From: an uncultured virus (IMG/VR IMGVR_UViG_2061766007_000756)
Taxonomy: Duplodnaviria > Heunggongvirae > Uroviricota > Caudoviricetes
Strand: one strand, 5' to 3'
Virus record (IMG/VR): IMGVR_UViG_2061766007_000756
DNA: 29,893 nt
Shown here piece by piece: positions 2,839-26,025 of the stretch. Position numbers and translations under genes: made by a program. Position 1 is the stretch's first letter. Every line of letters begins with the position of its first letter. The notes beneath the pieces were generated by a model, which was not told the DNA's origin, did no database searches, and saw nothing but the letters and a program-made list of their open reading frames with translations.

Positions 2839-3165
2839 TTATAGACTGCTTTCCACATTTTCCAGCAGGCTTCTTGCGATAATGAGCGCATTATCAGCAT
2901 CTTCGACATATGCGTGCATCTTTTCAAGTCTGCGGCAAGCCCGACTCACTTCTTCACTTGCTTTGATGAATTCACGGTTTGCCCTGGCCGCACGCTTCTC
3001 AGCGATCTTAACACCACAACGAGCCTCAGCTAGCTTCTGGCCAGAACTTAAATCGAATGTGTCTCTTGGATCACACTTGGCAACTCCGCGCACGGTCTTG
3101 CCAGCATAACTAGAAACGGCAACAACTTTGTTTTTATCATCACGATAAATCTTATAATTGTGCAT
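2839..3165 (-). CDS. hypothetical phage protein
   Basis: 108 aa, AAGGAG RBS, GxAKCxPxDxFD motif followed by a coiled coil. Confidence 0.8.
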   Translation of the reverse strand: MHNYKIYRDDKNKVVAVSSYAGKTVRGVAKCDPRDTFDLSSGQKLAEARCGVKIAEKRAARANREFIKASEEVSRACRRLEKMHAYVEDADNALIIARSLLENVESSL

Positions 3166-3195
3166 TTAAAAACTCCTTATAAAGTAATGATATAG

Positions 3196-3268
<73 letters not shown>

Positions 3269-3346
3269 AAGTATCGGTTTTTATCGTGACCGACAACACG
3301 CGGGTACCAGTTTATCGATTTTCAAGTCGGTACCCAATAACTATAT

Positions 3347-3958
3347 TTAATAATAGTTCACAGAACTAATTACACAAAGTGTTTCATAATCGACATATGC
3401 TTTTTCTTTATGCCAATTATCTTGCACAATAATAAATCTTTGAGTTTTCCCATTAACTAAATATTGTGCATACCCAACTATTGTTATAGAATGGTCTTTA
3501 TAATATCCTCGGCCATCATTCCATAATGATAGAATCATTGGCTTATTCTAATCTACTGATTTAACGATAGTATTAAAAGTATAACCAATGCCTTTCAAGT
3601 ATCCGGATTTCCATTTTGTTTTTTTATTAACAAGCTACTTTTCTGCTCGTTCCAAAATGGCGTTTATAAACAATGGAAATGTACCAAATTTACCAGTATA
3701 ACCAAATTTTTTTGCATGTGACTCAACAACATCGTAGATTTCTTGAATTGGTTTATGATATAAAAATTCCAATAGACAAGTCATAGAAGTCAATGTACAA
3801 TCACTTGCCAATCCATAATCTTCTTGTAGTAATGGAATAACACCCCCTACTACTTTATACTTCTATGGAACCATATGGATAATATTTCCATATTTTTCTT
3901 GTAAGTATTGCTATAATGAGTCTTGTGTAATAGGTTTATACTATAAATATTTTTTCAT
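3347..3958 (-). CDS. C39-like (papain-fold) cysteine peptidase, 203 aa with 5 in-frame TAG read as Gln
   Basis: GGAGG RBS plus ATG at 3958; TAG at 3941, 3911, 3863, 3635 and 3548; no TAA/TGA until 3347; Q..SDCTLTS, DHSITIVGY and VQDNW catalytic pattern. Confidence 0.8.
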
Positions 3959-4045
3959 ACTTGCGCCCTCCGTATCCAAAAGGCGAAAATCGAAGCACTT
4001 AGGTGCGCCAGCCGCACATTGTTTAATCTCTATTTGCTTAGAAAG

Positions 4046-4117
4046 AGCAAGTAGTGGGAATTGAACCCGCATCTGATGCTTGGCAAGCACCCGTGATAAC
4101 CATTATACTATACCTGC
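4046..4117 (-). tRNA. tRNA-Gly(GCC)
   Basis: Cloverleaf; loop UU-GCC-AA. Confidence 0.92.
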
Positions 4118-4279
4118 TGGTTAGGCGAGTTGGATTTCCACCAACATTCTCCCCCTCCTTTGGGGGTGTTTTCTACGCAGCTGGCCAAGCCGCCGATCTA
4201 TTTCACAAGTAGGTCAATTCTTATATACGTCTATACAAGTTAACTGCTGCCTTGAGAATAGCGTTGTAACTATCGCCTA
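4118..4279 (-). ncRNA. 162-nt tRNA-like RNA with a greatly expanded D region, ending in ACCA
   Basis: 7-bp acceptor UAGGCGA/UCGCCUA+ACCA; T-like arm GUUGG-UGGAAAU-CCAAC; CCCCC/GGGGG arm; ~90-nt insert inside a GUU/AAC D stem. Confidence 0.65.
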
Positions 4280-4280
4280 G

Positions 4281-4831
4281 AGCCCCCAGCCGGAGTCGAA
4301 CCAGCAACCTGCTCATTTGTATATCAATCACTCATAACGCTTTAAGACTTTTTCCAGTTCATAATTTTCTGCTAAACTGATACCTTTTTTTTGTCCATTT
4401 GAAGGATAAGTGTAACGCAAATTTTTTTCAACACCACATTCTTCAACTGGTACTAAATAGCATTTTCCATTATAATAAGTAGCAAAATAATCAATTTGAT
4501 CCTTATTATAAGATTCATAGGTTACACCAGTACTATTATTATGGGTAGACCTACATGCAAACTTAAAACATTCGTCGCTTACAAATCGAGAAGTTTTACA
4601 CTGAACCTTTAAAAGAGTTCCATTTACATCAAGAATAAAATCATAACGGCAGTTTTCTCCATATGGAATACTAACCTTACAACCTAATTCATAAAATGCA
4701 GTTAAACATCTTAGTTCGGTAAGATTTCCCTTTTCTTTAGAAGTAAGTTCCACTTTTTCAACCTCCTTTTTAAGAAGTCTTAAAGCAGAAAGATATACAA
4801 GTGAGCTGCTCTACCATTGAGCCATGAGGGC
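4281..4831 (-). tRNA. tRNA-Thr(UGU) interrupted in the anticodon loop (5' half 4797-4831, 3' half 4281-4317)
   Basis: Joined halves give a complete cloverleaf with GCUCA-CUUGUAA-UGAGC, C2-G71 and U73. Confidence 0.85.
4328..4753 (-). CDS. PD-(D/E)XK homing endonuclease (PDDEXK_5 / I-Ssp6803I-like)
   Basis: KGNLTE...YDFILD...LKVQCKT...YNKDQIDYFATY; GGAGG RBS, GTG start. Confidence 0.85.
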   Translation of the reverse strand: MELTSKEKGNLTELRCLTAFYELGCKVSIPYGENCRYDFILDVNGTLLKVQCKTSRFVSDECFKFACRSTHNNSTGVTYESYNKDQIDYFATYYNGKCYLVPVEECGVEKNLRYTYPSNGQKKGISLAENYELEKVLKRYE

Positions 4832-4834
4832 AGA

Positions 4835-5112
4835 TGGACCTGAGGGGAGTCGAACCCCTGTCCGAAACTAATACTAAATATGATTGTTTACGCTGTTATC
4901 CGACCAAGAAAAAATGGAAATAAATGATGCATGTCATGCGATTGTTTTTGACCCTCAGTAGCTACCATCGCGATCTGCCACGTTTTGGGGGCTGAACTCA
5001 AGCAGCCATTCTATAAGCGTAATTGTCGTTTATATTTAGAGTTTTTGATGGTAACGCCATCACTCGAGCGCAATCATATCATTCTTAACCCCGTCGAAAC
5101 CTTGACAGGCCC
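4835..5112 (-). ncRNA. ssrA: tmRNA, tag (A)DNYAYRMAA
   Basis: 5' GGGCCUGUCAAGGUUUCGACGGG; 3' GGUUCGACUCCCCUCAGGUCCA with G3:U70; AUAAAC-GAC resume context and tag ending GCU GCU UGA; own promoter at 5130-5158. Confidence 0.93.
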
Positions 5113-5163
5113 TTATTTCTTACATATATATTATAACAAAATTTTTCTAAAAAATCAAGAAAA

Positions 5164-5303
5164 AATCCTTGATGTAAGGCATCGCCCAGGTCTACTCTGT
5201 GCGCGCTAACTTGCGGTCGCCGCACACTACCAGCCTCTTTCTATGCATGATTGCATAAGAACCTTTTTCCATTGACCTTTTGGCTATCCTTACAGCAAGG
5301 ATT
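5164..5303 (-). ncRNA. unassigned stem-closed structured RNA (rod with central bubble)
   Basis: AAUCCUUG.UGUAAGG pairs with CCUUACA.CAAGGAUU; inner AGGUC/GACCU and hairpins. Confidence 0.45.
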
Positions 5304-5496
5304 CCCAACGAATCGTGAAGTCTCAGTTTAAGCGGCGAAGCTCGCAAGGAAAATTGGGAGTTCCTTCCTCTGACTTCAACGACCGTTTCACGAAGTTAAT
5401 ATGCCCCGCAATTAATAATAATATACAGCTCCCACTGACCAATATAGACGGGTACCTCGTCTAATAGGATTTTAGAAATGTAAAATAGAAGTGAAA

Positions 5497-5564
5497 TGCA
5501 AGTTATTCGTTTTCTTTTTCAAGAAATCCAAGAGCGCGACGTGGACGCTACTTGCTTCGCTCTC
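5497..5564 (-). ncRNA. HDV-like (theta-type) self-cleaving ribozyme in the tRNA-Tyr 3' trailer
   Basis: P1 GAGAGC/GCUCUU with G1.U; P2 GCAAGU/ACUUGC; P3 GCG/CGC; L3 UCCACGU; P1.1 CC/GG; P4 UUUCUU-GAAA-AAGAAA; J4/2 CGAA. Confidence 0.85.
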
Positions 5565-5567
5565 GCG

Positions 5568-5650
5568 TGGGCCGCCCTGGAGTCGAACCAGGTGAGCCTT
5601 AGGCACCTGATTTACAGTCAGGCCCGCTTCCACATACGGTATACCGACCC
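5568..5650 (-). tRNA. tRNA-Tyr(GUA)
   Basis: Cloverleaf; CCUGA-CUGUAAA-UCAGG; long variable arm. Confidence 0.93.
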
Positions 5651-5659
5651 ATATTACAT

Positions 5660-6270
5660 TTTGAAAAATTGCGTGAACCTTCGCTCTACAACATTATATT
5701 CTCTGTTTATTAGACTACCGAGGAAACAAGTCTGAGCCATAGGGAGCGACCCCATAACTTCTTGCCCCACCCGTTTTCCACGGGCACAGGTTCTTCACCT
5801 TTAATCTCGGACGGGATTGATTACCCGCAACTTTCACCCACCATTCAGAGTTTTCAGCAATAATGGTTCAAAATACCATTCTTAATCAAACATTAGAAAT
5901 TCTTCGCGCTTTGGGCTACTTGTGCACCGACCTTGTCTTATAGCCTTATTTCTAAGGCGTCACCGCGAACTTCCTTATTGGCATTCCTTGGTTTGTAATT
6001 GGTGCCACCCAATCACCTAACAAGGATTATTCCCCACAGGGGCGTCTATTATGGAAGCGACAAGACATCGTCCTAACTTGAGAATATAATTTGCGCCACC
6101 GCCCCACGGCACTCCCTCATTTAAGGAAGTAGTTCCAATTTGTCACCAAAAAGGAATTTTGCTTCGCTCCTAAGTATCCCAAGGAGTTGCTTAGCCGCTT
6201 TACGAGATTAACCCTACGGTGCCTCAGCACAATGGCATTCGCTCTGCACTGAGTTACGCAATTTTTCAAA
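5660..6270 (-). ncRNA. large (~610 nt) structured RNA of ROOL/GOLLD class; size favours ROOL
   Basis: 15-bp terminal stem TTTGAAAAATTGCGT/ACGCAATTTTTCAAA, many internal hairpins, no credible ORF, located in a phage tRNA array. Confidence 0.6.
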
Positions 6271-6503
6271 GTGCTTGTAAGAATTAGTAGAAAGCACCAT
6301 CGCCACGACAAGGCTTCTTACTTGATGGTGGGCAAAACGGTTTTACAGGTTGACCGTAAACCCTGGTAGTGTGGCTGCGCCCAAGGATTCACCCCGCGGC
6401 CGCAAATCGCTCTTTAAAAGATGGACTCTTCTAATCCTACTTCCTACCATCTATCTCCACTGGACTTACATATGATTTCTAACCATATCGCCAGGAGTTT
6501 TCA

Positions 6504-7749: not shown

Positions 7750-8854
7750 TTTCAAAACTATCCATAAAGGCTTTTACTTCTGCTTTTCTTGCCTTCTGGT
7801 CATCAGTATCATCATCCATATATTCCCAATCATCATTCCAAATAAGGTCTGCTTTATTAAGGTCAAGATGATAACCTGACTCATCAACAATAATGTCACG
7901 AGTATAAAATCTTAGACCAATAGAGGAGCAATATTTTTCAAATTCTTTAGGAATAGAACCTTTCTCAAAAACACACCAACCATAATTATAACGGTTGTTA
8001 AACATATCAAGGTCATAAGATTCTTTAGAGTAAGCAACAAAGCCATTCTTAAATACGAGTTTTGCAGTAAGATATAGATAGCGTTCACGCTCAATATTGA
8101 GATCCATCATAGTCTCAGCTAAATCATACCCCTGATTCAGTTCAAACGCGATTGCTCTCAACACATCGTACGTAAAAGCGGAAACCGCACTTAAAGCAAC
8201 GATCTTGTCAATCCACTGTTTGGCGTTATCATTGAGATTATCTTCCATATATTCTCTAACTTCATCTCCAGTCGGTGCACCCATAATAAAATGATAATGG
8301 AAGCGACCAGGACGATTCAGTAGATATGAATTCAAATCCCTTGTTTCATTACAAGTTACAACATATAACTTTTTACCATTGTCAATTCCATCAAACAAGG
8401 AAAGCAAAGTTTCTTGAGGTTCGTATCCTGTTTCTTTATTAGCTTTAAATGTTTTTTCAAATTCATCAAACAAGACAATACATTCTTGCTGAATAGAAGA
8501 AATAAAATCCTCAACTCCAGGGACTGCACAATCAACAATTAAAAGAGGAAAATTGGCTTCTTTCCCTGCTTCTGCCAGTAGGCGCGCAAACATAGATTTA
8601 CCGACGCCTTTTGGGCCAGAAAGAATAATACCCATATTGCGATTTAAATTTGCGAAGGTGTTCATAACCTTCTTTACTTTAATTGCATAAGGACCGTATA
8701 CTTTCTCATTTACAACAAGATCGTTATGACTTGTGAGATAAAATCCTGTCATCTTGTTAAATTCAACACGATAGGTATCAGCGGGAAGTTGTTTATAAGT
8801 TTGAACATCTTCACCATAAACCATATATCTATCGCCAGCATTAACAATATTCAT
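7750..8854 (-). CDS. AAA+ ATPase; true stop probably in the gap 7673-7749
   Basis: Walker A GPKGVGKS, Walker B VLFDEFEK, SRH LLNRPGRF. Confidence 0.9.
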
Positions 8855-8929
8855 ATGACTTCTCCTTTATCTCTCATTCATTTTCTATATATATTATACC
8901 AAAATTTTTCCAAAAAATCAATTCAGAAA

Positions 8930-9914
8930 TTATTCTTCTACAGTAAGGGAGTAATACCAATTCATTACAACATCAATATAATTCTGATTCCAAGTAATAT
9001 TATCGCCTTGAATATAAAATGATAAAGCGGCATCGACTTGATTACCAGTAGCAGCCAAAATGGCTTTCATATAATATGCATAGACTTTAAGACTATCATA
9101 TGGATTCCAAATATCAGCATGGTCCATTCCAGCAAAGTTCTTTGCGCGAGCATCAAAATAAATGCCCTTAAATTGACAGATGCCATGGTCTTTACCATTA
9201 GTAGAGTTAGGATTCCAGCGGCTTTCTTGGAAGATTTGCGCTACCGCATATGGATACCACCAAGAAAGACCCAGATTGTTTAATTGATTATAAAGATATT
9301 CTTCATATGCGCGATTAGGACATACTCCACAAATCGAAAGATATGTGAAGCCTGCGGCCGCCGGTTCTCTGATTGTGGAACTAGTCGGTGCGATTGTAGG
9401 CGCCGCCGCAATTGTTGTTGGCGGTACATAAGGTTGATCGCTTAGATATAAATCGCTCATATAAAGCACTTGTTCATTGAGAATAATTGTATACCAACCA
9501 GTTTCGTGGCATCGCGCAATCGCATATAGTTCATCATTTAAATGCGCAACGTGAATAATATCACCTTCTGTGCTGGGTAATGTTCTCACGTTTACCGATG
9601 CTGTCGCATACATAATATGAGGTTGGATATCATAAAATGTATATGCTGGTTTGGTAGTTTCTGGCTCTGTCTCGACCTCTGTTGTTGTTTCTTCTACTGA
9701 AGTTGTGGCTTCTTCAGTAGANNNNNNNNNNNNNNNNNNNTTCTTCTGTAGAACTTTCAAATGTTTCAATTTCTGTTTCTGTTGGTATTGAACGTTCTAT
9801 TACAGAAGGCATAAATTCAGGAAGAGTGTCTGTCGTTACTAACTTTGATTTTGAACATCCTGAACAAAATACGATAGTTAGCAAAACGATTAAAATTGTT
9901 AAGATTTTTTTCAT
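8930..9914 (-). CDS. exported/lipoprotein cell-wall hydrolase: signal, Thr/Glu linker, SH3b, lytic transglycosylase-like domain; frame broken by an N gap
   Basis: MKKILTILIVLLTIVFCSGC; VNVRTLPST...GWY (SH3b); AQIFQESRWNP...GICQF (SLT-like); joins ORFs 9714-9923 and 8930-9769. Confidence 0.8.
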
Positions 9915-9943
9915 TTTGTTCACCTCTTATTTTTTAGGATAAG

Positions 9944-10018
9944 GGTGAATGAAGGGACTTGAACCCTTGACCTCCAGGGCCACAACCTGGCGCTGCCACC
10001 AGCTGAGCTACATCCACC
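9944..10018 (-). tRNA. tRNA-His(GUG)
   Basis: G-1:C73; CCAGG-UUGUGGC-CCUGG. Confidence 0.92.
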
Positions 10019-10021
10019 ATA

Positions 10022-10058
10022 TAAAATAAGGGAGACCAAAATGCATGGCCTCCCTTAC
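10022..10058 (-). terminator. probable intrinsic terminator or processing hairpin
   Basis: UAAGGGAGGCCA...UGGUCUCCCUUA followed by UUUUAU. Confidence 0.5.
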
Positions 10059-10074
10059 AGTTAGTCCTATTTAA

Positions 10075-10620
10075 TTAGGGCCATTCGCCAAGAGGCATGC
10101 CAAGATTTCCAACCTCAATATCAGTATTGTAATAGCAGCCAGTAATACCAGCGTCACCAAAAATTTCTGCGGCAATGTCTTGATATAGAGTGCTAATAAT
10201 ACCATGGCAATCATTCAGATTGTCATTGAAGAACTGCACAACACAATTCTTAAATACGACATAAGTAGTAGCAAGCCAGTTGAAGCCTTCATCAGCAGGA
10301 CATATAGCATATGCAAATGCTGGATTGCCCTTAAACGCAACTTCAAAAAGCTCTTTCTTTGAGGTGAAAGCACGATTGCTCATAGTAGGGCAATCGACAC
10401 CGATTGTAAGAGGAATATTTCCGAAATGGATTTCGGTAGGAAGTAGCTTCACAAGTGCAGCCGCTTTATCACCATCATTCGTTGCAAGAACAACGGATGG
10501 GCCTTTTTCACCATTGTAGTCAACATTGAACGCAATCAGCGGATCGCCATCAAAAAGTGCTTGAAGCTTGTTGACATATGTTACCCATGGTGGAGAAATT
10601 CTTAATCTTACATCTGTCAT
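10075..10620 (-). CDS. hypothetical protein
   Basis: 181-aa ORF with AAGGAG RBS. Confidence 0.8.
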   Translation of the reverse strand: MTDVRLRISPPWVTYVNKLQALFDGDPLIAFNVDYNGEKGPSVVLATNDGDKAAALVKLLPTEIHFGNIPLTIGVDCPTMSNRAFTSKKELFEVAFKGNPAFAYAICPADEGFNWLATTYVVFKNCVVQFFNDNLNDCHGIISTLYQDIAAEIFGDAGITGCYYNTDIEVGNLGMPLGEWP

Positions 10621-11031: not shown

Positions 11032-11465
11032 ATAAAAAAATATTGCAAGGGCGCTCAATACTCGAACGCGCCCAATTCAGTCACACAGCGCAAACAATAA
11101 TCACAGTATTAGCGATCCCTTGCAATATGCTCCTCTGCGTTGCGGGCTTGGAACCGTCTATGGCCGCATTAGCATATATGTATTTATAAAGTAGGGAGTA
11201 AAAAGAAGAACTGTCATTAATAGAAAGAGGGAAAAGGTCAAAAAGGAAGTCCGAAATATGACCAAAAAATGACAATCAGAGTTAAAAAACTCTCCCTAAC
11301 GTAATAGTTTTGTTCTTTCTGAAGGCAACACTATATATAGAATGATGGCGTCCTGCAGCCTGGTCAGCCGATGATTACTGTCTTTGAAAATGTGGCAATT
11401 CATTAAAGATAACAGGAAAGACCAGGATCTCAACTTGCAGTTCTTACAGCTATACAGTGCTGTAG

Positions 11466-11538
11466 TGCCTCCGAGTGGAATTGAACCACTGACACGAGGA
11501 TTTTCAGTCCTCTGCTCTACCTTCTGAGCTACAGAGGC
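11466..11538 (-). tRNA. tRNA-Phe(GAA)
   Basis: GAGGA-CUGAAAA-UCCUC. Confidence 0.93.
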
Positions 11539-11546
11539 CTGAGGCT

Positions 11547-11660
11547 AGTCGCATATTTTAGGTTGGATTTGAACCAACTACCTTTTGCTCCAAATGCAAA
11601 CGCTCTACCTAATGAGCTACTCTCCCTACAGACGGAAGTAAAAGATTGCTGTTAGCGACT
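11547..11660 (-). ncRNA. ACAGCAA-stem element E5 enclosing D, anticodon and T arms but no acceptor 3' strand
   Basis: AGUCGCUA-ACAGCAA...UGCGACU; GCUC-AUUAGGUA-GAGC, UUUGC-AUUUGGA-GCAAA, GUUGG-UUCAAAU-CCAAC. Confidence 0.7.
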
Positions 11661-11663
11661 GAG

Positions 11664-11738
11664 TAGCGGGAGTGGGATTTGAACCCACAACCTTCTCCTT
11701 ATGAGGGAGACGAGCTTCCAGATTGCTACTATCCCGCG
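11664..11738 (-). tRNA. tRNA-Met(CAU), initiator-like body
   Basis: C1xU72 mismatch, CGCGGGA start; anticodon stem UCUCC/GGAGA lacks GGG/CCC. Confidence 0.85.
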
Positions 11739-11746
11739 ATATTACA

Positions 11747-11805
11747 CAAGACGAATTTAGGTTTTTTGATTACCAGTCAAATCCTTAATTGCTGTAATCG
11801 TCTTT
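11747..11805 (-). ncRNA. ACAGCAA-stem element E6 presenting an isolated Thr(GGU) anticodon stem-loop
   Basis: AAGACGAUU-ACAGCAA...UUCGUCUU; UUUGA-CUGGUAA-UCAAA. Confidence 0.7.
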
Positions 11806-12011
11806 ATTTTACATAATAATTATAACAAAAATTTTTATAAAAATCAATAAGATTAATTGAAGGATTACGTACCTTCTGGTAAATTGATCGGATCTACCTT
11901 ACGGAGGGTTTGCTTCAAGACAGTTATCCTTGCTCTCCCGATGCATTTTTATACCGAGCCAGGATGGACGCGGTTGAGAATTCTCTTAATAGAGTATATG
12001 ATACTCCATAG

Positions 12012-22792: not shown

Positions 22793-22825
22793 AAAAGGCT
22801 GGGTGTTTAACCCAGCCTTTGTTTT
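22793..22825 (-). terminator. intrinsic terminator
   Basis: AAAGGCUGGGU...ACCCAGCCUUUU. Confidence 0.75.
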
Positions 22826-24155
22826 AATATTTACCAAGAGATCCTGATAGTTTATCATTTGCTTTTGGTGGTTCTTTACCTGGCAAAATCGCATTTAGTA
22901 AGATACCTACCACTGATGCGATCGCCAAACCAGACAGCGATACACTAATGCTTCCGATTGCGAATGTAATAGCCCCGGCCGCACTAAACGAAACTCCTAA
23001 AGCCAAGCTAAGGATTGCCGCAGCAATAATAATATTTCTTGACTCTTGGAAATCAGTATAATTTTCTACCATATTTCTAATGCCAATAGCAGAAATCATA
23101 CCATATAGGATTAAAGATACACCACCGATAGTTGCGGCAGGCATTACTCTGATTAAAGCTGCAAACTTCGGGCAAAAACTCAATACAATAGCAAAATATG
23201 CGGCCAATCTAATCACAAATGGATCGTAGACCTTGGTTAATGCAAGCACACCGGTATTCTCGCCATATGTAGTATTTGCCGGAGCGCCAAACAGGGCGGC
23301 GATTGTGGTGCCAACGCCATCGCCGATTAAGGTTCTGTGCAAGCCAGGATTCTCAATAAAATTCTGACCAACTGTTGAGCCGATTGCGGAAATATCTCCG
23401 ACGTGTTCCATCATTGTAGCAATAGCAATAGGTACAATTGTTACAATGGAGCTGATTAGTAATCCTGTATTTACATTAGTCGAAAACAGACCAAATACTG
23501 TATCTTTCATTTGGAAAGGCAACCCAATCCATGCAGCGTCTTTTACTAATGTAAAATCAATATTACCAGTAATTGCGGCAACACCATATGACGCAACTAC
23601 TCCAAGTAAGATTGGAATGATTTTAATCATTCCTTTACCCCATATGTTGCAAACAATAACTACAACAATAGCAACGAGTGCGATCCACCAATTATTCGCG
23701 CAGTTATTAATTGCGGAAGGGGCCAGGGTCATTCCGATTGCAATAATAATCGGTCCTGTTACGATTGGTGGGAAAAACTTAATAATCTTATGGCTTCCCA
23801 CCATCTTACATATAAATGCAAGTAGTAGATAAAGCAGGCCGGCGCACGCAACGCCCACACAAGCATATGGCAATGCTTCAGCTTCAGTTAGACCATATCC
23901 TGCACCAGTTGTCTTGACTGCAGCATATCCGCCTAAGAACGCGAAAGAAGATCCCAGAAATACAGGAATTTTTCCGCTTGTAACTAAATGCATGAACAAT
24001 GTGGCGATACCGGCAAATAGCAGAGTAGCCGATACGCTCAAGCCAGTTAAAATGGGTACTAAAACTGTTGCTCCGAACATGGCAAAAAGGTGCTGCCACC
24101 CAAGCACCACCGTCTTGCCGATGCCCAATTCCTTCACATCATAAATTGGTTCCAT
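22824..24155 (-). CDS. uraA: uracil/xanthine permease (NCS2 family)
   Basis: QHLFAMFGATVLVP, LGSSFAF, EHVGD, NTTYGENTGV signature; multiple TM helices. Confidence 0.93.
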   Translation of the reverse strand: MEPIYDVKELGIGKTVVLGWQHLFAMFGATVLVPILTGLSVSATLLFAGIATLFMHLVTSGKIPVFLGSSFAFLGGYAAVKTTGAGYGLTEAEALPYACVGVACAGLLYLLLAFICKMVGSHKIIKFFPPIVTGPIIIAIGMTLAPSAINNCANNWWIALVAIVVVIVCNIWGKGMIKIIPILLGVVASYGVAAITGNIDFTLVKDAAWIGLPFQMKDTVFGLFSTNVNTGLLISSIVTIVPIAIATMMEHVGDISAIGSTVGQNFIENPGLHRTLIGDGVGTTIAALFGAPANTTYGENTGVLALTKVYDPFVIRLAAYFAIVLSFCPKFAALIRVMPAATIGGVSLILYGMISAIGIRNMVENYTDFQESRNIIIAAAILSLALGVSFSAAGAITFAIGSISVSLSGLAIASVVGILLNAILPGKEPPKANDKLSGSLGKY

Positions 24156-25239: not shown

Positions 25240-25268
25240 TTGAAAATTTGCGAAATTTATGGTATAAT
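25240..25268 (+). promoter_or_regulatory. sigma-A-type promoter, divergent from the one at 25186-25214
   Basis: TTGAAA-N17-TATAAT with an extended TG. Confidence 0.75.
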
Positions 25269-25302
25269 ATATATAGAAGTATCTAAAGAAAGGAGCGAAA
25301 TT

Positions 25303-26025
25303 ATGTCAATTATTGATTCAATACTTGCTGGGTTAGCTTATGGTCTTGGCGCTACTGCATGGTTTTTTATATATGATGGATCTTTAGCCAGCTTAATTGT
25401 TGGATCTTTTTGCTTTGCTATTGTCTTAATGGCAATTCCATATTATCGTCTTGACTTCTTTTTGGGACGCCCCGGCGCACTTGTTGATAAAAATATAGAT
25501 CCCGTTGAAACAATTATTGTTTACTTTGGTAATGCTATTGGAGTAATGTGGATCGCCATATTGATGAAATTATTTGCACCAATGGAAACTCATTTACAAG
25601 AAGTTGCTGAATATTGTTTATCTTATTTACGTGAACAGCATTGGGATAGTGTATTTGTTATATCTATCTTTTCAGGTATGATGTTTTATGCTGGTGCAAT
25701 GGCTATAAATAAAGGACAACCACCTATTTATTTTTTATTGATTAGCTTTGTATGTATGATGGCACGATGGCCAACAGTACATATTGTATTTTATTCTTTG
25801 TGGCTTGATAAATGGGCTGGCAGTTGGTATTTAATTGTTCCTGTAACTCTTGGTAACATAATTGGATCTAATATATGGGTTATGTTACGAAAACATAGTC
25901 CAACATTTAAGAATCAAGATTATATTAAACCAGACGAATATGATATTGTGGACAGGTTCCACGATTTTGTTCGGAACAACAAGAATTCTGAGGATCCCAA
26001 CAAGGACAACCATTCTGACAAGTAA
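25303..26025 (+). CDS. divergent formate/nitrite transporter (FNT)-like membrane protein
   Basis: About six TM helices; YFGNAIG and VTLGNIIGS motifs; AAGGAG RBS. Confidence 0.7.
   Translation: MSIIDSILAGLAYGLGATAWFFIYDGSLASLIVGSFCFAIVLMAIPYYRLDFFLGRPGALVDKNIDPVETIIVYFGNAIGVMWIAILMKLFAPMETHLQEVAEYCLSYLREQHWDSVFVISIFSGMMFYAGAMAINKGQPPIYFLLISFVCMMARWPTVHIVFYSLWLDKWAGSWYLIVPVTLGNIIGSNIWVMLRKHSPTFKNQDYIKPDEYDIVDRFHDFVRNNKNSEDPNKDNHSDK

Follow-up and report, generated by a model that had tools for sequence, protein, structure and literature searches.

The stretch of DNA analysed here, hereafter the window, is a 29,893-nucleotide (nt) record of an uncultured virus of the class Caudoviricetes (IMG/VR IMGVR_UViG_2061766007_000756). 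On its minus strand, at positions 4831–4281, lies a threonine transfer RNA (tRNA) gene, tRNA-Thr(UGU), interrupted in the anticodon loop by a 479-nt insert. As read from the sequence, the gene itself is intact: every stem (acceptor, D, anticodon and T) is paired, between or within the two halves, the loop consists of C-U-UGU on the 5' half and A-A on the 3' half, and CCA is not encoded. With all four stems paired, the original prediction that both tRNA halves are intact is borne out. It had also described the insert as a short leader, an open reading frame (ORF) for a PD-(D/E)XK endonuclease and a tail, of 43, 426 and 10 nt, and the coordinates (Table 1) and the protein match given below agree with this.

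The insertion site required more care. In its default mode ARAGORN misses the split tRNA-Thr gene; with introns allowed it reports c[4280,4831] with a 479-nt insert, but places this at 32/33 and types the tRNA as Cys(ACA). Several placements fit the window sequence, since loop bases recur, inverted, at the ends of the insert. A shift by one base, to 4317–4795, fits equally well, and the contig joint 4316->4796 shows the same ambiguity. The site was set at 36/37 by relatives that have only one possible placement and by the empty site of phage iF6 as compared with phage EFP01. Of the two positions originally put forward, 36/37 is therefore retained and 37/38 abandoned. In what follows, L numbers denote individual related loci and G numbers near-complete related phage genomes; the window locus is WIN.

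Table 1. Features of the split tRNA-Thr(UGU) locus in the window (WIN) and the split tRNAs of phage G003
Feature	Position	Strand	Description	Basis
5' tRNA half	4797..4831	(-)	nt 1-36 in standard numbering, 35 bases; acceptor, D arm, anticodon-stem strand and loop nt 32-36; UGU at the end	sequence, ARAGORN with introns
Insert, 479 nt	4318..4796	(-)	between nt 36 and 37	
Leader, 43 nt	4754..4796	(-)	first 5 bases in the anticodon helix; 4786-4775 = leader strand of the 12-bp helix; GGAGG at 4766-4762	
Endonuclease ORF	4328..4753	(-)	426 nt, 141 codons + stop; GTG start 8 nt past GGAGG; PD-(D/E)XK, I-Ssp6803I family	
Tail, 10 nt	4318..4327	(-)	last three bases = reverse complement of the anticodon	
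3' tRNA half	4281..4317	(-)	A37, A38, anticodon-stem strand, variable loop, T arm, acceptor strand, U73 discriminator	sequence, ARAGORN with introns
9-bp helix, 5' strand	4792..4800	(-)	U33-U36 + first 5 insert bases	
9-bp helix, 3' strand	4317..4325	(-)	last 8 insert bases + A37	
ORF end paired with leader	4339..4350	(-)	12-bp perfect pairing with leader 4786-4775; ORF looped out	
G003 split tRNAs	L137:1438-1965, 8516-9063, 9874-10416, 11349-11887		CAU, Thr(UGU), two different Lys(UUU); paralogous ORFs	

The ORF encodes an enzyme of the I-Ssp6803I family, as had been proposed. It matches Pfam PF11645 (PDDEXK_5) with E = 5.6e-30 (104.6 bits against a cut-off of 26.1) over profile positions 3–137 of 138, and the I-Ssp6803I chain of PDB entry 2OST with E = 7.4e-7, the '...YD...D...LLKVQ.K' block being aligned; in PHROGs it is assigned to phrog_5018. 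A large protein collection holds 361 relatives of similar length. In a 27-sequence alignment of relatives E13, D38, D42, Q51 and K53 are invariant, that is, the acidic residues and the Q-x-K block matching the prototype are unchanged throughout. We take these residues to be catalytic. The original prediction had added that the family normally resides in tRNA group I introns. This is true of the prototype only; phage relatives were found in ribozyme-free inserts, in cassettes with a spare tRNA and as free-standing copies between tRNA genes.

The frame is open in 64 of 69 relatives under genetic code 11 and in four more if TAG is read as sense, leaving one unclear. Decay was considered as the cause of the premature stops in some relatives and was rejected, because all of them are TAG codons at places where relatives have sense codons, in phages with suppressor tRNAs. 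In-frame TAG occurs in the endonuclease ORFs of L016, L019, L020, L027, L071, L101 and L111, with Gln in the relatives where compared by eye. Suppressor-type tRNAs are found in the same phage group (CUA and UCA in G002, UUA in G003), and on the sequence evidence the pattern looks like stop-codon recoding. At the N terminus, several of the relatives' predicted proteins are extended by what looks like a translated tRNA 5' half.

The gene is not accompanied by a recognisable ribozyme. A permissive Rfam/Infernal scan of window positions 3000–6500 gave no match at E<=10 to group I, group II or small-ribozyme families, and Rfam gave no intron or ribozyme match at E<=1 either in 12 relatives or in the 20-kilobase (kb) tRNA region of phage G003. 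The window contains its own positive control, a second split tRNA, Ser(CGA), at c[1233,2063] on the minus strand. Its 745-nt intron at 37/38 carries an HNH ORF (1355–1870; PF01844/PF13392) and gives weak group I matches of 18.9 bits (E = 0.035) and 15.7 bits, below the gathering score; it is probably a true group I intron, and its signal indicates that the scan can detect such cores in this window. The insert in tRNA-Thr(UGU) has only 53 nt of non-coding sequence, and the inserts of all split genes measure 451–494 nt, so that none is roomy enough for a ribozyme. In a codon alignment of 69 ORFs, conserved four-fold third positions keep 1.3–1.8 of 2 bits along the whole gene; four-fold sites being unconstrained along the ORF, a conserved RNA core hidden within it is unlikely. 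These results uphold the earlier claim that there is no ribozyme core.

The insert also departs from the layouts of group I and bulge-helix-bulge introns. Its 3' end reads ...CA, not G, and the inserts of relatives end in A, T or C according to the first anticodon base. The bulge-helix-bulge register fails, nt 32–35 being unpaired with insert positions -6 to -3, and the predicted fold shows at the junctions a continuous helix of 9 base pairs (bp), or 11 positions in relatives, without 3-nt bulges. That the insert lacks a terminal G and does not form a bulge-helix-bulge had been stated correctly.

The element is one of a family. Scans with the protein and the 27-sequence profile yielded 116 loci, comprising the window, 3 + 26 viral, 6 genome and 80 metagenome loci. 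A strict layout filter (ARAGORN insert of 400–520 nt plus the ORF motif) found the ORF inside a split tRNA at 92 loci; L006–L009 and L055 have the same layout and were missed by motif or stem framing only, which brings the total to at least 97 of 116. Most source contigs are viral and 100–250 kb long or come from rumen or gut metagenomes, and the few 'genome' matches are small contigs of metagenome-assembled genomes (MAGs). Among 73 unique split genes, in the 36/37 placement, the anticodon is UGU in 63, AGU in 3 and GGU in 3. Of the remaining four, L002 is a tRNA-Asn(GUU), and L012, L091 and L110 are ARAGORN stem-framing errors that become Thr(UGU) once re-framed. Family targets are tRNA-Thr (UGU, AGU, GGU), Lys(UUU), Met/Ile(CAU) and Asn(GUU). 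Five PF11645 ORFs occur in the complete 190-kb phage G003 alone, four of them inside split tRNAs with inserts of 453–472 nt (Table 1).

Filled and empty sites establish that these inserts move. Enterococcus phage EFP01, a cultured Schiekvirus, has a related 463-nt insert in tRNA-Asn, with an enzyme 50% identical to that of the window; the tRNA is absent from its annotation. Among 31 matching phage records, 2 are EFP01, 27 match the flanks only, mostly with tRNA-Asn annotated, and 2 have an HNH gene nearby. In iF6, a sister of EFP01 and the sole record aligned, the 73-nt tRNA-Asn(GUU) equals the first 36 plus the last 37 bases of the EFP01 tRNA. The insertion was thus precise, between nt 36 and 37, without duplication or loss. 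Insert-less alleles therefore exist in related phages, and the empty site of iF6 matches the EFP01 exons exactly. Near-identical insert leaders occur in the rumen set in tRNA-Thr genes with different acceptor and T stems. For the window itself the filled/empty evidence consists of insert-less look-alike tRNAs from the same habitat; an exact search for exon 1 in viral contigs gave no match. We conclude that the element is a mobile, ribozyme-free homing-endonuclease cassette of the I-Ssp6803I family, lodged in a phage-type tRNA-Thr(UGU) just 3' of the anticodon, before A37, and that the family spreads by DNA homing among the tRNA genes of large phages. The suggestion of a homing element is confirmed by the filled EFP01 and empty iF6 alleles and by the same insert in different tRNA backgrounds.

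Shorter, ORF-less versions were also sought. A degenerate motif scan gave at least 120 AT-rich places, none in a tRNA among the matches listed, and ARAGORN with short introns on five genomes returned calls that do not show the helix rule. tRNA-like genes with short ORF-less inserts, which offer too little space for a ribozyme, do occur (L020:101-236, L027:537-672, L026:857-1005, L006:295-414) and do not follow the anticodon-pairing rule; examples are a Leu(UAA) with 49 nt ending in ACCA, a Lys(UUU) with 72 nt, and a 117-nt tRNA-like RNA (Rfam tRNA, 38 bits). Distant relatives of the ORF (31–34% identity) stand directly after an intact tRNA-Thr(UGU) in two Pacearchaeota MAG contigs (L034:1058-1700, L035:690-1270), and in L034 a second, diverged copy of the tRNA T arm and acceptor strand lies past the ORF. 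In EFP01 the terminase large subunit (L291:708-2654, record 100707-102653) is annotated as two short coding sequences around a 'hypothetical protein', possibly another intervening element.

The two ends of the insert pair across the anticodon. In the window, nine perfect pairs (4800-4792 with 4325-4317) are followed by two U.U mismatches and then by the perfect 12-bp helix between leader 4786-4775 and ORF end 4350-4339. This pairing had been singled out in the original prediction, and it is both kept and covarying in relatives. We anchored the junctions at the anticodon stem and compared 56 distinct junction types, using cross-locus shuffles as the reference. U33 pairs with A37 in 56/56 types; the last three insert bases are paired with anticodon nt 34 in 51 types, with nt 35 in 55 and with nt 36 in 55; and insert bases 1–7 pair with insert bases -4 to -10 in 42–55. 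At i2:i-5 the pairs are TA in 17 types, AT in 15, TG in 13 and CG in 4 (49 paired, against 29.1 in shuffles), and at i3:i-6 they are AT in 29, GC in 24 and TA in 2 (55/56 paired, against 38.8). The 3' triplet of the insert tracks the anticodon. All three AGU genes are compensated, and in the Lys, CAU and Asn inserts the final bases complement the respective anticodon, with one G.U pair in the Asn case (EFP01); nt 34 is mismatched in 2 of 3 GGU genes and in three UGU genes. Since the pairing recurs and covaries in 56 junction types, it is more than chance: a long-range helix that buries the anticodon is under selection.

The helix has a regular geometry. It spans 11 positions from nt 33 in 44/56 types and ends at a conserved A.A mismatch (47/56) and a pyrimidine.C mismatch. 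The Met and Lys2 inserts of G003 have the same 11-position pattern, while Lys1 diverges after 8 pairs. Counted from nt 27 to insert base 7, the helix typically comprises 17 positions with its centre at nt 35, and both exon-insert junctions lie symmetrically about this centre, 3 bp apart with 3' overhangs, flanking the paired anticodon. Both helices and the cloverleaf are present in the minimum-free-energy fold of the 551 nt (-145.4 kcal/mol, z -4.0; 0/100 shuffles fold as well). Across relatives the second helix has modest support, with a mean duplex energy of -10.5 kcal/mol versus -8.3 kcal/mol for cross-locus pairs. Target-site duplication was rejected as the source of the terminal complementarity, because a staggered cut gives direct rather than inverted repeats and the covarying bases are internal to the insert. 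Mimicry of RNase P or Z substrates by the 7-bp end helices was dropped as well, the 3' tails following the anticodon and not being CCA-like.

In the middle of this variable helix lies an invariant island. U33, G35, U36, A37 and A38 are the same in 56/56 types, and nt 34 varies only among U, A and G, each of which gives a Thr anticodon; around this island, the anticodon-stem pairs show 3–6 pair types each and the insert pairs 4–9. Filtering of the junction set on these loop bases cost no more than 4 of 73 entries, namely three framing errors and a tRNA of another kind. C32 stands opposite A38 in 22/56 types and is never repaired by a change of A38. Bases adjoining a homing site are normally carried along with the element by co-conversion. 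They should accordingly drift like insert bases unless selected. Pairing alone would let the loop bases drift and a working anticodon loop would not, so their invariance points to selection.

The tRNA bodies are likewise well kept. Over 21 stem pairs, 49 of 69 split tRNAs have no mismatch and 14 have one, as compared with 74 and 42 of 138 intact neighbours; at most one mismatch is thus found in 63/69 and 116/138, respectively. The split tRNA of the window lies outside the group of loci with two or more stem mismatches, and five of the six outliers are parser offsets. The split gene is the only Thr(UGU) in 5/5 near-complete relatives, which have 27–37 intact tRNAs. G005 has no other Thr tRNA at all. 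G003, with its four split tRNAs, has no intact Lys(UUU), and the EFP01 cluster holds no further tRNA-Asn.

Our leading reading, which we rate as nearly as probable as its opposite, is that the insert functions as an intron whose removal depends on proteins. In the transcript its 3'-terminal bases would pair with U33–U36 and with its own first bases, prolonging the anticodon stem into one helix, and the second helix would loop out the ORF. A two-fold symmetric nuclease would cut both strands beside the anticodon triplet paired to its 'anti-anticodon', and an RNA ligase would join U36 to A37, closing a 7-nt anticodon loop. Candidates for the nuclease would be the insert's own enzyme or a host enzyme; cutting by the former would yield 5'-phosphate and 3'-OH ends, which an ATP-dependent ligase could join. 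That the PD-(D/E)XK enzyme of the insert is itself the RNA splicing nuclease, acting on an RNA version of its DNA site so that one protein serves both homing and splicing and an RNA ligase of phage or host seals the loop, appears improbable to us. An RNase III-type cut was rejected as the splicing step, because a 7-nt loop results from a 3-nt stagger alone and cannot come from a 2-nt one. As judged by PF09414, 5/5 near-complete relatives encode an RNA ligase whose N terminus is an OB domain (phrog_968; PF21189 + PF09414), and the two ligase ORFs that were scanned match phrog_968 with E = 1.5e-71 and 1.7e-64. Its neighbours offer nothing informative beyond a sub-threshold Macro domain. A search with RNA_lig_T4_1 matched 0/5 genomes, the control likewise matching none. 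The wider proposition, which we hold tentatively and at somewhat under an even chance, is that large phages of gut and rumen bacteria harbour tRNA introns that lack a ribozyme and are spliced by proteins, a class that would be the first of its kind beyond archaea and eukaryotes; its substrate would be a continuous two-fold symmetric helix.

A number of observations weigh against splicing by proteins. Profile searches of the five near-complete related phage genomes found RtcB in 0/5, the splicing endonuclease tRNA_int_endo in 0/5 and Tpt1 in 0/5, so that the original proposal of a nuclease plus an RtcB-like ligase is not supported as far as the phage is concerned. Among the window ORFs of at least 100 amino acids, 23 were scanned in Pfam and 18 in PHROGs, and neither set showed a ligase or splicing nuclease. 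A PF09414 ligase is also missing from EFP01, and phages rich in tRNAs often have ligases of this type for unrelated reasons. In its right half the RNA helix is unlike the DNA target in sequence. We know of no precedent for the cutting of double-stranded RNA by an enzyme of this fold and, to our knowledge, no protein-spliced tRNA intron has been described in bacteria or phages. The window ORF had no coverage in three RNA libraries (X1, X2, X4). A joint that skips exactly the 479 nt was seen in RNA library X1 (one contig, depth 2.9) and in X7, of unknown kind (one contig), but the flanks are unlike the window and indicate another genome, that is, insert-less relatives in the habitat and not splicing. 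Some exons are damaged: L072 has three real stem mismatches, L103/L105 have lost the T arm, and next to the fifth G003 ORF (L137:6823-7200) only a 3' tRNA half is recognisable. In L001/L004 (L001:1269-1968; enzyme 73% identical) an intact spare Thr(UGU) lies between a 5' piece that no longer matches and the ORF, and in L076 (~470-1100) a spare Thr(GGU) lies inside the cassette. Such cassettes, built with the same enzyme family, suggest that insertion can kill the target tRNA. At two ectopic places between tRNA genes (L043:120-700, L119:~560-1130) only the terminal helix and remnants of the anticodon arm remain; as the helix is kept there without a tRNA body, it may serve the cassette itself. 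Frequent homing alone could, moreover, keep exons looking new.

Many of the same observations speak for a selfish homing cassette that is not spliced and destroys the tRNA, a loss that is tolerated or later rescued by spare-tRNA cassettes. We judge this a serious contender, only slightly less probable than protein-dependent splicing. The helix could then serve the endonuclease gene, through tRNA-scaffold-like processing or stability, as a double-stranded RNase site that releases or stabilises the messenger RNA, or by binding the enzyme for autoregulation. This account fits the lack of a ribozyme and of a splicing endonuclease or RtcB in related phages, the spare-tRNA and helix-bounded ectopic cassettes and the damaged exons. 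It also fits the occurrence of the insert in 1/29 sequenced Schiekvirus phages (31 records, two being second accessions), that one, EFP01, being a viable isolate. The same insert in many exon backgrounds implies frequent homing, which could keep exons intact without selection. It sits less well with five fixed loop bases and a Thr-only nt 34 amid a covarying helix, with the C32/A38 mismatch that is never relieved through A38 (22/56), with a split gene that is the sole Thr(UGU) in 5/5 relatives and with one phage that has four split tRNAs. Simple cassettes also predominate, at no fewer than 97 of 116 loci, against about three with a spare tRNA, and a standard 2-nt staggered cut would miss the exon borders. 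Of the two readings offered originally, a protein-spliced intron and a homing element that tolerates loss of the tRNA, the mobility has been confirmed and no phage RtcB or splicing endonuclease was found in the five related genomes; the two readings are of similar probability. Self-splicing by a small undescribed catalytic RNA, formed by the terminal helices and internal loops and reversible like a hairpin-type ribozyme, is in our view very unlikely. It could draw on conserved blocks beside the helix in most relatives (5' 'CAAAY', 3' 'CATTG'), on the A.A mismatch in 47/56 types and on the fact that no protein partner has been identified. No ribozyme in Rfam matches, though models of this kind might overlook a core split by a loop of 426 nt. 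In the window the 5' conserved block is absent and U.U mismatches are found there, the blocks differ in the Asn, Lys and Met tRNA inserts, the ORF has no synonymous-site constraint, and about 50 nt of RNA is very little for two site-specific cleavages and one ligation. An assembly chimera or decaying pseudogene might be suspected because the window is a metagenome record. We discount it almost entirely: the layout recurs at 97 or more loci from independent assemblies and in a cultured phage genome, and a 538-nt contig of an independent run covers both junctions (4288-4825) with 2 differences.

The surroundings of the split gene are those of a dense tRNA array, with 24 tRNAs and a transfer-messenger RNA (tmRNA) called by default ARAGORN on the minus strand of the first 14 kb of the window. 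The tmRNA (4832-5112, minus strand; Rfam) ends at the base before G1 of the split tRNA, with zero spacer. A ROOL RNA (5656-6277, minus strand; 349.8 bits in Rfam) lies 540 nt upstream, and ROOL is also found beside split tRNAs in EFP01 (L288:2430-3016) and in phage G003 (L137:4397-5047). A further tRNA at 11560-11621 (minus strand; Rfam, 49.1 bits, model positions 6–65) is missing from the default ARAGORN list. Elsewhere the window encodes a xanthine/uracil permease (22824-24155, minus strand; PF00860, E = 2.4e-83) and a formate/nitrite-transporter-like ORF (25240-26025, plus strand). These are cell-like cargo, and the window may belong to a very large phage with host-derived genes or contain a phage–chromosome junction.

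By the accepted rule, an essential or conserved gene can host a homing endonuclease gene only when the latter is sheltered by a self-splicing intron or an intein. This family, with at least 97 loci in six tRNA species or isoacceptors, breaks that rule whether it is spliced or not. If the inserts are spliced, they would reveal an unnoticed protein-based pathway of tRNA splicing in bacteria or phages, acting on a new kind of substrate and bearing on the origin of archaeal and eukaryotic tRNA introns. If they are not, phage tRNA genes would be expendable landing pads and the helix a new device by which a selfish gene exploits a tRNA body for its own expression. As the default ARAGORN miss and the unannotated gene of EFP01 illustrate, split genes escape standard tRNA finders, so that phage tRNA sets are undercounted. 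The cultured phage–host pair of EFP01 makes the question of splicing testable at the bench. We conclude that the element is a homing-endonuclease element of tRNA genes, with a substantial chance of also being a new kind of intron.

A literature search, mainly at the level of listings and abstracts, found no published account of endonuclease inserts that lack a ribozyme in the tRNA genes of phages or bacteria. The closest known system is that of I-Ssp6803I, which shares with the window element the protein family (PF11645) and the type of target, the anticodon stem-loop of a tRNA gene. Bonocora and Shub are said to have reported in 2001 that I-Ssp6803I cuts the DNA strands beside the anticodon triplet, leaving 3-nt 3' extensions. 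The splice geometry proposed here for the RNA would equal that reported DNA cut. The enzyme binds a 23-bp pseudo-palindromic site as a tetramer (PMC3384342) and its specificity profile spans 17 bp (PMC3424549), and the Synechocystis tRNA-fMet group I intron that encodes it measures 655 nt, with an ORF of 150 amino acids and ~200 nt of non-coding or ribozyme sequence (PMC1995217). The prototype thus differs in being a group I intron that splices itself and that resides in a cyanobacterial chromosome, whereas the window element has 53 non-coding nt, no core and a home in phage tRNA arrays.

Free-standing endonucleases of tRNA clusters, such as SegB of T4/T6 and those of T5-like phages, are likewise selfish and directed at tRNA genes, but they lie between genes and break nothing. 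SegB is described as a tRNA-targeting selfish nuclease that spreads with flanking tRNA sequence (PMC8421152). A distant relative of our ORF also stands free between tRNA genes in Pectobacterium phage My1. The cassettes that combine the endonuclease with a spare tRNA (L001/L004, L076) share the enzyme family and the insertion point with the window element; they differ in that the 43-nt leader of the window is too short to hold a tRNA, and in that the window exons match each other whereas the 5' half in L001 no longer matches its 3' half.

The archaeal splicing endonuclease is presented as a derived member of the PD-(D/E)XK superfamily (PMC3424549). Together with the matching cut geometry, this makes the enzyme of the insert a candidate for the splicing nuclease. 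The archaeal system relies on that enzyme, EndA, of which the related phages here have a homologue in 0/5. We know of no EndA homologue in bacteria. Archaeal bulge-helix-bulge introns, some of which carry homing-endonuclease ORFs, and eukaryotic tRNA introns have 3-nt bulges, a 4-bp helix and a site at 37/38, where the window element has a continuous helix and a site at 36/37. The original comparison with eukaryotic pre-tRNA introns accordingly holds for the pairing with the anticodon and fails at the junctions, which lie inside a continuous helix and not in bulges. If the insert is spliced, however, it would resemble these introns in being ribozyme-free, in having its ends paired by the splice sites with the ORF looped out, in the pairing of intron and anticodon, and in offering a pseudo-two-fold symmetric substrate suited to a dimeric nuclease followed by a ligase.

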